A DNA stretch of 64,000 bases from Mobula hypostoma (taxonomy: Eukaryota). The DNA lies in contig NC_086097.1 in the NCBI RefSeq assembly GCF_963921235.1, forward strand, positions 3,534,001-3,598,000. Reading direction: 5' to 3'. Position 1 is the first letter of the stretch; each line of letters opens with the position of its first letter. The notes under the pieces were generated by a model. The model saw only the letters and a program-made list of their open reading frames with translations, had not been told where the DNA came from and made no database searches. The position numbers and the translations under genes are program-made. Positions 1 through 55,280 of this stretch are shown in pieces.

Positions 1-512
1 AGTGATAATGATCAGGAATAACCAGGAATGATCTTGGCAGATTTTTCTGCAGAAGTGGCTTGCCATTGCATTCTTCTGGGCAGTGTCATTCATCGTCATC
101 GTGGCTATCCCTCGAGGTCGAGGATGATGGTCTTCGTTCTGAAGAAGTGGCCCACAGAGTGAAGATGCCTGTGCGTGTAGTTGTTTAATGTGTACTTGAT
201 GTTGCACTCCAAGAAGCACACGATACTTCACAATCAACCAACTGATTCCAATGGCATGGAAACCACGACAATTGGAGCTGATGGATTTGTTGCAGCCTTT
301 ATCCGCCTTCACAGCCGTTGAGTTCGAAGTAACTTCGTCCGCCTGTTCCACCTTTGAGGTCTTGGTTGGAGGCAGTGTCATTACAAGGTGATTGAATCCA
401 GCCATTATCAATACTCCTCAGAGACTGTCTGCTTGGCACCAGGACTTGTGATATGTACCAGCTACCCATACAACCATCTATCACCTGCTCCCAGGGGCTC
501 ATGTGACCCTAA
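1..512 (-). mobile_element. RTE-related SINE-like element (family B), interrupted by a younger insertion at 91-370
   Basis: The minus strand has a BovB/RTE-like motif (CCAGAAGAATGCAATGGCAAGCCACTTC). It shares AGGGTCAC(A/G)TGA..GGGAGCAGGTG with 15826-16020. Confidence 0.6.
91..370 (-). mobile_element. 5'-truncated non-autonomous RTE-derived retroposon (family A)
   Basis: Near-identical reverse complement of ~54158-54433. Perfect 12-bp TSD GGCAGTGTCATT at 79-90 and 371-382; (GAT)n-like tail. Confidence 0.92.
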
Positions 513-5366: not shown

Positions 5367-5720
5367 CTATAAGACATAGGAGGAAAACTAGGCCATTCAG
5401 TCCATCGAGTCTGCTCCAGCATTCCATCATGGCTGATTTATTAGCCCTCTCAATCCCATTTTCCCACCTTCTCCCCATAATCTTTGACGTCCTATCTAAT
5501 CAAGAACTTATCAATGCTGCTTTAAATATATCCGATAACCTGGCCACCACAGCAGCCTATGGCAGTGAATTTCACAGATTCACCACCTTCTGGCTAAAGA
5601 AATTCCTCCTTTTCACTGTTCTAAATGGATATCCTTGTATTCTGAGATTCTGCCCTCTGGTCCTAGACTCCCCCGCTGCTGGCAACATCCTCTGCATGTC
5701 CACTATGTCTAGACCTTTCA
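5367..5720 (-). mobile_element. CR1 LINE 3' end
   Basis: FFSQKVVNL.NSLP motif and CR1 3' UTR. Confidence 0.85.
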
Positions 5721-6345: not shown

Positions 6346-7083
6346 ATTTGTTGTGGCTATCCCTCGAGGTCGAGGATGATGGTCTTCGTTCTGTTGATCT
6401 ACTTATGGGCTCTCAAGTGGCTTATGAGTCCAATCTTGGCTTTGAAAGATCTTCCGCATTCAGGACAGGTAGTTCCAGATGACAGATCGGGCTTTGGTTG
6501 TTGCTGCCTCTCTTTCCATTTTCTTCTCTCTTCTTCTAATTCTGCACATCTATTGGCTTCGAAAGTTGCTGTTCCTCCTCGGATGATGGCTTGACAGAGT
6601 TTCCTGTCCTTGTCATTGGTTTACCAATTGTTGATGTAGATGTTACATTTCTTCATGTTGGCTTTTAAGACGTCTTTGAATCTCTTCTGTTGTCCGCCTC
6701 TTTTACGTTTGCCTTCTTTAAGCTGGGAGTAGAAGATTTGTTTCGGCAGATGTTCGTCTTTCATCCGAACAACATGACCGCTCCATCTTAGTTGGTTCTT
6801 GATGACGTAGGCTTCAATGCTTGTTGTTTTTGCTTCATTTAGCACGCTGACGTTGGTTCTTCTATCTTCCCAGCTGATAAATTTAAGATGTTTCGAAGAC
6901 AGCGTTGATGGAACTTTTCAAGTGCCTTCAGATGTCATCGGTATGTTGTCCAGGTTTCTGATGCATACAGGAGTGTTGGGATTACCACTGCTTTGCACAC
7001 TAACATTTTGGTGTCTGTTTGGATGTCACGATCATGAAAGACTCTTGTTCGGAGGCGTCCAAAAAGCTGTTCCAGCGCATTTA
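6346..7083 (-). mobile_element. RTE-clade LINE, 5'-truncated
   Basis: QLRWSGHVVRMKDEHLPKQIFYSQLKEGKRKRGGQQKRFKD; C-terminal zinc finger CPECGRSFKAKIGLISHLRAHK*; short 3' UTR with (CAA)n tail. It splits the FADD motif of a CR1. Confidence 0.92.
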
Positions 7084-7930
7084 AGATGATGTTGGATCTG
7101 TAGTGTAGTGAACAGTGATGAAGACTGTCATGGCTTGTGGAGGGATGTGGACCAGCTGGAAAAATAGGCTGAAAAATGGCAGGTAGAATTTAATGCATAC
7201 AAGTGTGAGTTGTTGCACTTCAGTAGGACCAGCTAGGGTAAAGCTTAAAGAGTGAGCAGTAGGGCACTGAGGAATGTGGTAGATGAGAGGGATCTGGGAA
7301 TACAGATCCATAATTCCATGAAAGTGGTGTCACAGATAGAGCCTTAAGGAAACCTTCTGACACATTGGTCTTCATAAGTCAAAGTATTCAGTGCTTTGGG
7401 ATGTTATGTTGAAATTGTATAAGATGTGGGTGAGGCCTAATTTGGAGTATTGTGTGCAGTCTTGGTCACCTATCGGCAGTAAAGATATAAAGGGTACAGA
7501 TAACATTTATAAGTATTGCCAGGACTAGAGGACCTGAGTTATAAGGAAAGATTGAATAGGTTAGGACTTTATTCCCTAGAACATAGAAGACTGAAGGGAG
7601 ATTTGATAGAGATATAGAAAATTATGAGGAGTATCGATAGAGCAAATGCAGGCAGACTTTCTCCACTGAGGTTGGGTGAGAGTAGAACTGGAGGTCATGG
7701 GTTAATGTGAAAAGTTTAATGGATAATTTCTACACTCAGAGGGTGATGAGACTGTGGAATGAGCAGCCAGCGGAAGTAGTAGATGCTGGGTTGATTTCAG
7801 CATTTAAGTAAAATTTGGACATATACATGGGTGGGAGACTTATGGTCTAAGTCCCGGTTGATGAGACTAGGCAAGCATGGACGAGATAGGCCAAAGGGCC
7901 TGTTTATGTGTTATTGTATTCTACGACTAT
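7084..7930 (+). mobile_element. CR1 LINE 3' part (5' stub at ~6322-6345)
   Basis: Decayed VRPNLEYCVQSWSP, LRGDLIEIYKIM and 3' UTR. Confidence 0.85.
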
Positions 7931-24091: not shown

Positions 24092-24440
24092 TAGACCATA
24101 AGAAAAAGAAGCAGAATTAGGCCATTCAGCCCATCAAGTCTGCTTCATCATTCCATCATGGCTGATATATTATCCTTCTCAACCCCATTGTCCTGCCTTC
24201 ACCCCGTAACCTTTGATGTCCTGACCAATCAAGAACCTATCAACCTCCACTTTAAATATACTCAAAGAGTGGGCTCCGCAGCCAACCGTGGCAATGCATT
24301 CCATAGATTCTCTACCCACTAGTTAAACAAATTCTTCAACTCTGTTCTAAATGAATGTCACGCTATTCTGAGGCTGGGCACTTTGGTCCTAGACTCCCCC
24401 ACTATATGAAACATCCTCTCCACATCCACTCTATTCACTC
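24092..24440 (-). mobile_element. CR1 LINE 3' end
   Basis: Same 3' UTR type as 5367-5720. Confidence 0.85.
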
Positions 24441-38772: not shown

Positions 38773-39145
38773 AAACCATAAGTCGGAGAAGCAGAATAAG
38801 ACCATTCTGCCCATCGTGTCTGCTCTGCCATTTCATTAAGTCTGATTTATTATCTCTCTCAACTCCATCCTCCTGCCTTCTCCCCATAACCTTTGACACT
38901 CTGACTAATCAAGAACTTATCAACCTCCACTTTAAATATACCCAATGACTCTGCCTCCACAGCTGAATTCCACACATTCACCACCCTTTGGCAAAAGAAA
39001 TTCCTTCTCATCTCTGTTCTAAATGAATGTTCCTCTATTCTCAGGTTGTTCTTTCTGCTCCTAGACTCCCCATCTGTGGAAAACATCCTGCCCACATCCA
39101 CTCTATGCAGGCTTTTCAATATTTGATAGATTTCAATTAGATCCC
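38773..39145 (-). mobile_element. CR1 LINE 3' end
   Basis: DLIEIYQILK, NFFCQRVVNVWNS. Confidence 0.88.
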
Positions 39146-49249: not shown

Positions 49250-50610
49250 GTAAGACCCATGGAGGGGGAGTGAGGAGTGAGGAGGAGCAGTGAAGAGTAA
49301 GGAGGAGGAGGAGGAAGAGGAGTGAGGAGGAGGAGGAGTGAGGAGGAGGAGGAGTGAAGAGTGTGCATGTTAAAACCCATGGAGGCATGAGGAGGAGGAG
49401 GAAGAGGAGTGTGTATTTTTGTTAAAACCCATGGAGGAGATGAGGAGTAAGGAGGAATGTGTATCTATGTTAAAACTCAGGGAGGAGTAGGACGAGAAGA
49501 GTGTTTCCATGGTTAAACCCATGGAAGAGGAGTGAGGAGGAGGAGTGTGTATCTATGTCAAAACCCATGGAGGAGGAGTGAGGAGGAAGAGGAGGAGGAG
49601 GAGGACTGTGTATCTACATTTAAACCCATGGAGGAGGAATAAAGAGGAGGAGTGGCAGGATACTTGGTAGTGTGGAGGAGCAGAGGGATCTTGGGGTACA
49701 TGTCCACAGATCCCTGAAAGTTGCCTCACAGGTGGATAGGGTAGTTAAGAAAGCTTATGGGGTGTTAGCTTTCATAAGTCGAGGGATAGAGTTTAAGAGT
49801 CGCAATGTAATGATGCAGCTCTATAAAACTCTGGTTAGGCCACGCTTGGAGTACTGCGTCCAGTTCTGGTTGCCTCACTATAGGAAGGATGTGGAAGCAT
49901 TGGAAAGGGTACAGAGGAGATTTACCAGGATGTTGCCTGGTTTAGAAAGTATGCATTATGATCAGAGATAAAGGGAGCTAGGGCTTTACTCTTTGGAGAG
50001 AAGGAGGATGAGAGGAGACATGATAGAGGTATACAAGATAATAAGAGGAATAGATAGAGTGGATAGCCAGCGCCTCTTCCCCAGGGCACCACTGCTCAAT
50101 ACAAGAGGACATGGCTTTAAGGTAAGGGGTGGGAAGTTCAAGGGGGATATTAGAGGAAGGTTTTTCACTCAGAGAGTGGTTGGTGCGTGGAATGCACTGC
50201 CTGAGTCAGTGGTGGAGGCAGATACACTAGTGAAGTTTAAGAGACTACTAGACAGGTAAATGGAGGAATTTAAGGTAGGGGGGTTGTATACTTTATACTT
50301 CATACTTTATTGCCGCCAAACAATTGATACTAGAGTGTACAATCATCACAGTGATATTTGATTCTGTTCTTCATGCTCCCTGGAGTACAAATCAGTAGTA
50401 AATATTAAAAATTTTAATTATAAATCATAAACAGAAAATAGAAAAGGGAAAGTAAAGTAGTGCAAAAAAAGCTGGGAGGCAGAGTTTGAGGGTCGGCACA
50501 ACAATATGGGCCGAAGGGCCTGTACTGTGCTGTACTATTCTATGTTCTATGTTCTACATTAAAACCCTTGGAGGTGAAATGAGTGAGGAGGAGGGGGAGT
50601 GCGTATCTAG
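49250..50610. repeat. GA-rich minisatellite (AAACCCATGGAGGAGGAGTGAGGAGG..GTGTATCTATGT) split by a CR1
   Basis: About seven variable units at 49250-49655 and one more at 50555-50610. Confidence 0.88.
49655..50555 (+). mobile_element. CR1 LINE 3' part (with a Rex1-type 3' UTR inserted at ~50287-50472)
   Basis: LYKTLVRPRLEYCVQFWLPHYRKD; (TTCTATG)n tail. Confidence 0.93.
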
Positions 50611-53850: not shown

Positions 53851-54015
53851 CTGGTTATTGACCTATTTCTGGTTAATTGAATCCATTGCCTGTATCTTTT
53901 CTGAGGCTTCTCTTAAAGAATACGGTGGCATTGGAAGAAAGTGAAAGGGCACAATTCTCAGGATGGATTTGATTTCTGGCCTATCGTCACTTTGTATTTC
54001 TTTTGCTTTACTGTT

Positions 54016-54160
54016 CTTCTCCGTGGATTGTCACCTTGTCGCGGTGGAGAAGCTTGTGTGGTCCTGTGATCCCGAGAGCGATGCCGTCTGGAGCCATGCT
54101 CCTGGTAGGGTCACCCATGGTGGTAAGGTCGAGGGTGAGGTCCCTGACAAAGAACAATCC
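54016..54160 (+). ncRNA. Candidate HDV-like (double pseudoknot) self-cleaving ribozyme
   Basis: P1 CTTCTCC/GGAGAAG, P2 GGATTGT/ACAATCC, P3 ACC/GGT, L3 TTGTCGC and J4/2 CAAAGA, in HDV topological order. P1 starts at the element's 5' end. Confidence 0.6.
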
Positions 54161-54433
54161 AACCAAGACCTCAACGGTGGAACAGGCGGACGAAGTTACT
54201 TCGAACTCAATGGCTGTGAAGGCGGATGAAGGCTGCAACAAATCTATCAGCTCTAATCGTCGTGGTTTCCATGCCATTGGAATCAGTTGGTTGATTTGTG
54301 AAGTATCGTGTGCTTCTTGGAGTGCAACATCAAGTACACGTTAAACAAATACACGCACAGGCATCTTTGCTCTGTGGGCCACTTCTTCAGAACAAAGACC
54401 ATCCTCGACCTCGAGGGATAGCCACGATGATGA
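54016..54433 (+). mobile_element. Full-length bipartite non-autonomous RTE-derived retroposon (family A)
   Basis: RTE-type 5' UTR (CACCTTGTCGCGGTGGAG..GGTAGGGTCACCCATGG..CTGACAAAG) plus RTE 3' tail and (GAT)n; TSD GCTTTA(C/G)TGTT at 54005-54015 and 54436-54446. Confidence 0.9.
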
Positions 54434-54469
54434 GGGCTTTAGTGTTACTTTAGTGTGAGAAATAAACTT

Positions 54470-55280
54470 GAAGGCCAAGTATATTTCAAGGAAAGGTTGA
54501 TAGGTTCTTGATTAGTAAGGCTGTTAAAAGTTATGGGGAGAAGGCAAGAAATGGGGCTCGGAGGGATAATGAATTAGTTGAGGCATTGAGTTCAAAAGTT
54601 AGGAGGTTATGTTGCAACTTTATAAAACTCTGGTTAGGCCACATCTGGAGTATTGCATACAGTGCTGGTCACCTCATTATAGGAAGGATGTTGAGGCTTT
54701 GGAGAGAGTACAGAAGAGGTTCACCAGGGTGCTGCCTGGTTCAGAGGGCATGAGCTATCATGAGAGGCTGGACAAACTTGGGCTGTTTTCCCTGGAGTGG
54801 CGGAGACTGAGGGGAGATCTGATAGAGGTTTCTAAGATTATGAGAGGCACAGATAGAGTGGATAGAGAGTATCTGTTTCCCAGAGTTGAAACGCCTAATA
54901 CCAGACGGTTTGCATTGAAGGTGAGAGGGGATAGGTTCAAAGGGTTATGTTTTTTCTCAGAGAGTTGTGGACACCTGGAATGCGCTGCCTGGTATGATGG
55001 TAGAAGCAAATACATCGGAGGCTTTTAAGAGACGTTTGGATAGACACATGGATGTAAGGAAGATGGAGGGATATGGACATGGTGTAGGTGGGAGGGTTGT
55101 AGGTGTTTGAGTGTTTTTGATTTGCTTTTTAGCTGGTTCGGCATAGCACTGTGGGCCGAATGGCCTCTTCCTGTGCTGTACTATTCTGTGTTCTATGTTC
55201 TCAAATCAGCCATGGTGGAAAGAAGAAACAGACTTGATGGGCCAAATAGCCTAATTCTGCTCCTAAGTCTTATGGTCTAA
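54470..55280 (+). mobile_element. Two nested CR1 3' ends (inner copy ~54577-55201)
   Basis: ORF 54609-55028: LVRPHLEYCIQCWSPHYRKD; the outer 3' UTR resumes at ~55202. Confidence 0.88.

Follow-up and report, generated by a model that had tools for sequence, protein, structure and literature searches.

The 64,000 nucleotides of Mobula hypostoma DNA analyzed here (NCBI RefSeq assembly GCF_963921235.1, contig NC_086097.1, positions 3,534,001 to 3,598,000 of the forward strand; hereafter the window, numbered from its first letter) contain a full-length copy of a short interspersed nuclear element (SINE) whose first nucleotides resemble, in an atypical form, a self-cleaving ribozyme of the hepatitis delta virus (HDV) type. 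The element ends in a tail shared with a long interspersed nuclear element (LINE) and is flanked by target-site duplications (TSDs). The element and its relatives in the window are laid out as follows.

54016..54435, + strand: headless, RTE-tailed SINE, full-length copy (~420 nt), delimited by steps in contig depth and by loose contig ends at 54015/54016 and 54433
54005..54015, + strand: left TSD, GCTTTACTGTT, identical to 54436-54446 at 10 of 11 positions
54436..54446, + strand: right TSD, GCTTTAGTGTT
54388..54433, + strand: 3' tail common to an RTE-like LINE, ending in a GATGA-type short repeat, with a 41-nt match to 6353-6393 (- strand)
6353..7189, - strand: RTE-like LINE fragment, 5'-truncated, source of the tail
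91..370, - strand: second SINE copy, 5'-truncated at the equivalent of 54158, 94% identical to 54158-54433

That this is a real, abundant retroposon, found in several sequenced rays, with an exact common 5' end, a LINE tail and TSDs is well supported. Logan contigs from four runs representing three organisms (the X1, X5 and X10 series) were aligned to 53962-54501 at a likeness of at least 80%. In X1 the contig depth is 6.3 over 53962-53997, 449.8 in the bin that runs to 54015 and 46,863 over 54016-54033, and it has fallen to 12 from 54448 onward; X5 and X10 repeat these steps, the 3' drop coming after ~54433. Contigs whose upstream sequence is unlike that of the window stop at 54015/54016 in all three series (59+82 in X1, 71+110 in X5 and 50+110 in X10), and their upstream flanks agree at just 0.34-0.39, which points to many distinct insertion sites. 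Aligned contig pieces of the family number 3974 in X1, 4880 in X5 and 4182 in X10. Full-length copies share one start nucleotide, 54016, which is the first base of P1, the outermost helix of the proposed ribozyme. A preliminary description of this locus, made from its letters alone, had placed the start of the insertion exactly at P1, with the left TSD ending at 54015, and had raised the prospect of heterogeneous 5' ends extending upstream of it; the depth step and the contig ends bear out the placement, and what the three organisms display is a common start. Contigs spanning 54015/54016 are present in X15, a set presumed to be RNA, and are uninformative either way on cleavage.

The copy in the window is close to the majority of its family. 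The majority letter differs at 54042 (C to T, 83-97% of depth), 54095 and 54121, and at 54080 in X1 and X5, and none of these differences touches a proposed base pair. Among the variants listed, none at 6% or above falls inside P1, P2, P3 or J4/2; alignment ends are unreliable here and we draw nothing from this. CpG transitions make up most of the family variants in the contig data, and the window itself, with a GC content of 0.44 and an observed/expected CpG ratio of 0.31, has a vertebrate-like depletion. The second copy at 91-370 is flanked on both sides by a perfect 12-bp TSD (371-382 and 79-90) and is therefore a 5'-truncated insertion, which lacks the ribozyme region; no second copy of the 5' module was found elsewhere in the 64-kb window. 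Exact-pattern scans of viral, metagenome and prokaryote-genome contigs for further DNA copies gave 0, and protein-guided contig scans gave none. Some contigs continue after 54181 with 30 letters that are absent from the window, and we considered whether the 5' module might be joined to a different body; this was dropped, as comparison with the protein P0002 identifies the continuation as a diverged version of the same body.

The 3' end of the SINE ties it to a LINE. The 41 nt that match 6353-6393 (54388-54425) lie just before the tail repeat, and on the LINE side they sit immediately 3' of the stop codon of the fragment, whose 3' end has no poly(A). Relatives of this LINE carry one open reading frame (ORF), ~1065 amino acids in length, with the endonuclease domain first and the reverse transcriptase (RT) after it (PF03372, PF14529, PF00078); a full-length relative, P0032, is 1065 amino acids long, its endonuclease start running into the RT. 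The best named protein matches of the fragment are from a devil ray at 92%, followed by a mantis shrimp at 79% and an anole at 68%; the closest LINE is in Mobula hypostoma. This ORF architecture and the patchy hosts of the relatives fit an RTE-type LINE, and we take the partner to belong to the RTE clade from the hallmarks that we associate with that clade. The view of the element as an RTE-derived non-autonomous retroposon is accordingly retained in part: the LINE-derived tail, the TSDs and the high copy number speak for it, whereas the clade name is our assumption and the LINE that shares the tail is best called RTE-like. As observations on the fragment itself, its ORF terminates in a C2H2-like motif, and the patchy hosts recall horizontally transferred RTE elements. 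The 5' end of the SINE, by comparison, resembles no familiar SINE head. ARAGORN reports 0 tRNA genes in the element, and Rfam at E values up to 10 returns only three weak snoRNA matches and no tRNA, 5S or 7SL head, in agreement with the preliminary description of a ~420-nt SINE without a tRNA head.

The candidate fold of this headless 5' end can be divided as follows, all parts on the + strand.

54016..54022: P1 5' strand, CTTCTCC, forming 7 Watson-Crick pairs with 54046-54052; proposed cleavage immediately 5' of C54016
54023..54024: J1/2 (GT); T54024 could pair with A54161
54025..54032: P2 5' strand, GGATTGT, plus C54032; pairs with 54154-54160, and C54032 with G54152 if A54153 is bulged
54033..54035: P3 5' strand, ACC; partner GGT at 54043-54045
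54036..54042: L3, TTGTCGC; the family majority has T at the last position
54043..54045: P3 3' strand, GGT; abuts the P1 3' strand
54046..54052: P1 3' strand, GGAGAAG
54053..54054: P1.1 partners; C54053 with G54038, T54054 opposite T54037
54055..54147: J1/4 and a long domain at the P4 position, 93 nt; minimum free energy (MFE) -29.7 kcal/mol
54148..54151: J4/2, CAAA, with candidate catalytic C54148; fits CNRA
54152..54161: P2 3' strand, comprising G54152, bulged A54153, ACAATCC and A54161

A direct check of the letters confirmed every helix string, L3, the inner hairpin of P4 (GGAGC 54090-94 with GCTCC 54098-54102) and the CAAAGA at 54148-53, and three details of the earlier assignment change. 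J4/2, first taken as the 6-nt CAAAGA, is better described as C54148-A-A-A, with C54032 and G54152 paired and A54153 bulged; the C that ends L3 belongs to the window copy, most of the family ending in T; and the helix GGTCCT/AGGTCC at the base of P4 (54060-65 with 54138-43) is present with a T.T mismatch and is the MFE helix of the P4 domain alone, but it fares poorly in the diverged copies described below. The centroid fold gives an 8-bp P2.

We compared this arrangement with chance at several levels of stringency. Helix topology by itself is not more than chance. A strict descriptor (P1 of 7 Watson-Crick pairs, P3 of 3 pairs and P2 of at least 7 Watson-Crick pairs) finds 1 match in the window and 0.25 per shuffled window over 12 shuffled windows, and a looser one finds 11 in the window and 8.8 per shuffled window, so that the helices alone are not significant. 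Two other topological matches, 57369 on the + strand and 3762 on the - strand, were set aside as chance, their loops bearing no resemblance to L3. The published descriptor (RNArobo supplement, Figs S11-S14) adds sequence to the helices: P1 with R...Y at its base, a 6-bp P2 next to P3, a P3 of 3 Watson-Crick pairs, L3 of the form TYYHCGY, RN after P1, a P4 region of 4-54 nt and CNRA in J4/2, with a variant that allows one insertion in P2. Measured against it, the locus has the nested double-pseudoknot order P1-P2-P3-L3-P3'-P1'-(P1.1)-P4-J4/2-P2', with P3' abutting P1'; L3 agrees at 6 of 7 positions, with T, C and G present and a G in place of Y at position 3; J4/2 reads CNRA at 54148-51 and is followed by G54152, which pairs with C54032 once A54153 is bulged; P3 passes with 3 Watson-Crick pairs; and P2 passes as 6 bp with A54153 as its one insertion. 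The HDV-like family has only five conserved nucleotides, according to PMC4870747. On our own reading of the descriptor, these would correspond to T54036, C54040 and G54041 in L3 and C54148 and A54151 in J4/2, and all five are present.

A descriptor with a 6-bp P1 misses the candidate owing to its register, and P1 was therefore set at 7 bp in a relaxed version, which asks for L3 of the form TYNHCGY, a P1.1 pair, CNRA, a P2 with at most one insertion and a P4 region of up to 100 nt. In the window this version matches the present locus only, and in 1000 dinucleotide-shuffled windows, both strands searched, it matches 2 times in total. The match also falls on the exact first base of the retroposon, a base fixed independently by the contigs. 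Given the rarity of such matches in shuffled DNA together with the position of this one at the retroposon start, we regard pure coincidence as excluded for practical purposes.

A second line of evidence comes from diverged copies that survive as translated sequences. One frame stays open for 108 codons through the SINE (54018-54344, + strand, from the second codon). It was rejected as a gene, its only relatives being translated repeat copies, and serves here as a reading aid; a Pfam search of it yields no significant family, the single match (Nre_C, E 0.034) lying below the cut-off. When 1.8 billion representative proteins were scanned with HMMER, 14 translated copies came up, and other searches added a few more; these include a protein from a stingray (90% identical) and, within a MAGUK gene model of a teleost, an exonised copy. 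The closest translated copy is in Hypanus sabinus. Gene callers list such copies as 'uncharacterized proteins' in ray genomes and as an internal segment of the teleost MAGUK p55 gene model. In P0007, from an ENA contig, the 5' module occurs twice: one copy, in another frame, covers 54038-54145, and the second starts at its 5' end eight residues later, an arrangement of nested or adjacent insertions. P0012 and P0018-P0026, from Logan contigs, are ten ~90%-identical translated copies with identical residues on both sides of the SINE, six of them with the N-terminal part, and in their organism the SINE may sit inside a larger repeated unit.

Fifteen copies were aligned to the window with a frameshift-aware script and the changed letters deduced by codon parsimony. 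Over these 15 copies the changed cells divide as follows.

P1: 9 keep pairing, 1 breaks it, 3 undetermined
P2: 11 keep pairing, 16 break it, 2 undetermined
P3: 1 keeps pairing, 2 break it, 0 undetermined
P4 base: 8 keep pairing, 10 break it, 1 undetermined

The favorable result for P1 includes one deduced two-sided change, from C-G to G-C at the pair 54016-54052 in P0004, which would put a purine back at +1. Of the 16 breaks in P2, five concern the doubtful terminal pair 54024-54161, and because that pair is broken in 5 of the 5 copies in which it changes, T54024 is probably a linker rather than part of P2; at the pair 54031-54154, three copies have C-G and two have T.G. C54148 is compatible with 15 of 15 copies, from rays to the teleost, and in 12 of them a threonine codon fixes it; A54151 persists in 15 of 15, G54041 in 13 of 13 and C54040 in 10 of 13. 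The letters of J4/2 are thus nearly invariant while the adjoining letters of P2 vary, and in the conservation profile both strands of P2 are the least conserved parts of the module. The covariation check that had been suggested for the helices could in this way be run at the codon level, where it comes out mildly in favor of P1 and of the core letters and neutral for P2; it is a weak test.

Several results weigh against a functional ribozyme and must be set beside this evidence. Three features depart from the published descriptor: the base of P1 is C54016-G54052 rather than R...Y, the P1.1 pair G54038-C54053 is flipped relative to Y-R with T.T as its second pair, and the P4 region, at 93 nt and with no clear stem, exceeds the limit of 54. 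P2 needs its bulged A to fit, and the relaxations that admit the candidate were chosen post hoc, with the candidate known. The nested MFE of 54016-54181 is -52.6 kcal/mol, a stability no greater than that of shuffles (z +0.83 and +0.27), and the P4 domain likewise has a z-score no better than shuffles. Forcing P1 and P3 gives -44.6 kcal/mol, to which a P2 duplex adds about -9.0, and by these crude energy sums the pseudoknot would be competitive with the nested fold yet not favored over it. Among the translated copies, P2 and P3 are neutral, the base of P4 is not maintained, and the true register (21 kept:20 broken) is only marginally better than slid registers (15:42, 18:28, 24:33, 17:27 and 29:31) and ties with the +2 register (24:24). 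Most of these copies are dead and decaying, and the set is neither independent nor unbiased, having been selected through open frames. The most conserved blocks, 54070-81 and 54100-17, belong to the P4 domain, a part that a ribozyme can do without, and a further well-conserved block, 54166-77, is also outside the core. Finally, the 165 nt searched against the Rfam ribozyme families matched none of them, either at the gathering threshold or with E values up to 10. Sequence conservation is very low in the HDV-like family, whose pseudoknots are also modelled poorly, and for these reasons we treat the Rfam result as weak negative evidence.

Some of these departures have precedents in known ribozymes. 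Elements already known to carry HDV-like ribozymes at their 5' ends include RTE, baggins, R2 and L1Tc/NARTc (PMC6765202; PMC3185411). The closest parallel is L1TcRz, from L1Tc and the non-autonomous NARTc of Trypanosoma cruzi, which likewise places a ribozyme-type module at the first nucleotides of the element, with a pyrimidine start (CCCTG in the primers, PMC3185411) and a P1.1 of a single pair. L1TcRz is active and cleaves at +1 of its C-starting element (PMC3185411). The C at +1 and the one-pair P1.1, entered as caveats in the preliminary description, are true of the window copy and have an experimentally active precedent in this example. L1TcRz differs in its size of 77 nt, its short P4, its L1Tc/ingi clade and its protist host, and in that the same 77 nt of L1Tc serves as promoter (Pr77) and ribozyme (PMC3185411); the SINE has a vertebrate host, an RTE-like partner and a 93-nt P4, and its ribozyme is a candidate. 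Insect RTE ribozymes share with the SINE what we take to be its LINE clade and the proposed release of a promoterless element from read-through transcripts (as summarized in PMC6765202 and PMC4908430), but they belong to autonomous elements and were detected by means of the canonical descriptor (R at +1; L3 TYYHCGY), whereas the present element is SINE-sized and vertebrate and fails that descriptor at +1 and P1.1. R2 elements and their SIDEs (short internally deleted elements) have a 5' HDV-like ribozyme that sets the element's 5' end, and non-autonomous R2 derivatives retain the ribozyme and the 3' end (PMC3414825); unlike the dispersed SINE with its 11-12-bp TSDs, R2 occupies a specific site in 28S rDNA and is co-transcribed there by RNA polymerase I. 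According to PMC3774820, the P4 of R2 ribozymes is highly variable and may be missing or unstructured, and the invariant positions are the catalytic C and four others; the conserved positions named there include a C and a G in L3 along with the catalytic C. One comparison is less favorable: the candidate J1/2 is 1-2 nt long, and a short spacer can be limiting, one engineered J1/2 series showing no activity when it is removed and little with 1 nt (PMC4908430). A literature search within the collection of papers covered, judged by titles and the starts of abstracts, found no fish SINE with an HDV-like ribozyme head.

Taken together, we read the first ~146 nt (54016-54161) as probably a genuine HDV-like 5'-processing ribozyme with an atypical core, a prediction from pattern and position that we hold with reasonable rather than high confidence. 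This reading appears strengthened relative to the preliminary description, the core fitting the descriptor save at three points, and the module, with the self-release advanced there, is still a candidate. In the mechanism that we propose, the element would be transcribed within longer host transcripts, since it carries no promoter of a known SINE type. The RNA of 54016-54161 would fold into the nested double pseudoknot, with C54148 as the putative catalytic base, and cleave itself immediately 5' of C54016. Everything upstream would thereby be stripped, and the released RNA would start at 54016 and end with the LINE-derived tail (54388-54433), which an RTE-like reverse transcriptase would use for target-primed reverse transcription. 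Full-length cDNAs would then yield copies with an identical first nucleotide and 11-12-bp duplications.

The exact 5' end does not by itself decide for cleavage, because SINEs that bear a promoter all have sharp 5' ends as well. Position 54016 could instead mark where transcription begins, and the 5' ~180 nt would then be an internal promoter or protein-binding module in which the helices are non-catalytic or partly fortuitous. The location of the best-conserved blocks outside the ribozyme core, the lack of clear covariation in P2 and P3 and the empty Rfam search would all sit comfortably with this, and the double role of the 77 nt of L1Tc (PMC3185411) makes a promoter function unsurprising. 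Set against it are the ARAGORN and Rfam searches, which found no similarity to tRNA, 5S, 7SL or other small RNAs, and the joint occurrence at +1 of the L3 signature, CNRA, a P1.1 pair and the pseudoknot order, which a transcription start leaves unexplained and which shuffled windows produce so rarely at any position. We consider this explanation unlikely, though it retains a real share of the probability. Less of it goes to a relic, that is, a module descended from a working HDV-like ribozyme, perhaps in the 5' untranslated region of the RTE partner, that no longer cleaves efficiently while the 5' end is set in some other way. The pyrimidine at +1, the flipped single P1.1 pair and the swollen P4 would be the causes of such decay, and the canonical G paired to C deduced at +1 in P0004 suggests that the C-G of the window family is derived. 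Yet the family has spread into thousands of contig pieces, its 5' end lying uniformly at the base of P1, the core letters of J4/2 and L3 are still retained across copies, and L1TcRz cleaves with the very +1 nucleotide and P1.1 in question (PMC3185411). The remaining alternative is that unrelated short complementarities at the beginning of a repeat happen to follow the HDV order. Topological matches are indeed common, and the two set aside above are clearly of that kind, but once the sequence constraints are added a match becomes rare, and it must also fall on the first base of the retroposon and on the correct strand; we consider this highly improbable.

A further open frame lies directly 3' of the SINE and was noted separately. 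It spans 141 codons (54603-55028, + strand) and is repeated in the window, with weaker copies near 38842-38941, 24169-24262, 5433-5514 and 49774-49837. A Pfam search of this frame gave no family, and it is presumably LINE-like, which we take to mean the C-terminal part of another LINE family.

Returning to the ribozyme reading, we suggest tentatively, at slightly less than an even prospect, that the SINE represents a ribozyme-headed superfamily of jawed fishes (rays and at least one teleost) characterized by a pyrimidine at +1, a flipped P1.1 and a long conserved insert at P4, and amplified by self-excision from host transcripts. The conserved blocks of the P4 domain could serve a second function, such as binding of the RTE protein or an internal promoter, for which the dual Pr77/L1TcRz system of L1Tc offers a model; as an observation in its own right, blocks 54070-54081 and 54100-54117 may act as a promoter, bind a protein or form the core domain of a SINE. 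If the predicted fold cleaves, 5' processing by ribozymes would extend from the LINEs of insects, nematodes and trypanosomes to an abundant vertebrate SINE. It would explain how a SINE without an RNA polymerase III head comes to have a precise 5' end, and the known ribozymes would gain a natural variant whose +1 nucleotide is a pyrimidine and whose P1.1 pair is reversed. Searches with canonical descriptors miss such variants, and HDV-like ribozymes may for this reason be under-counted in vertebrate repeats.
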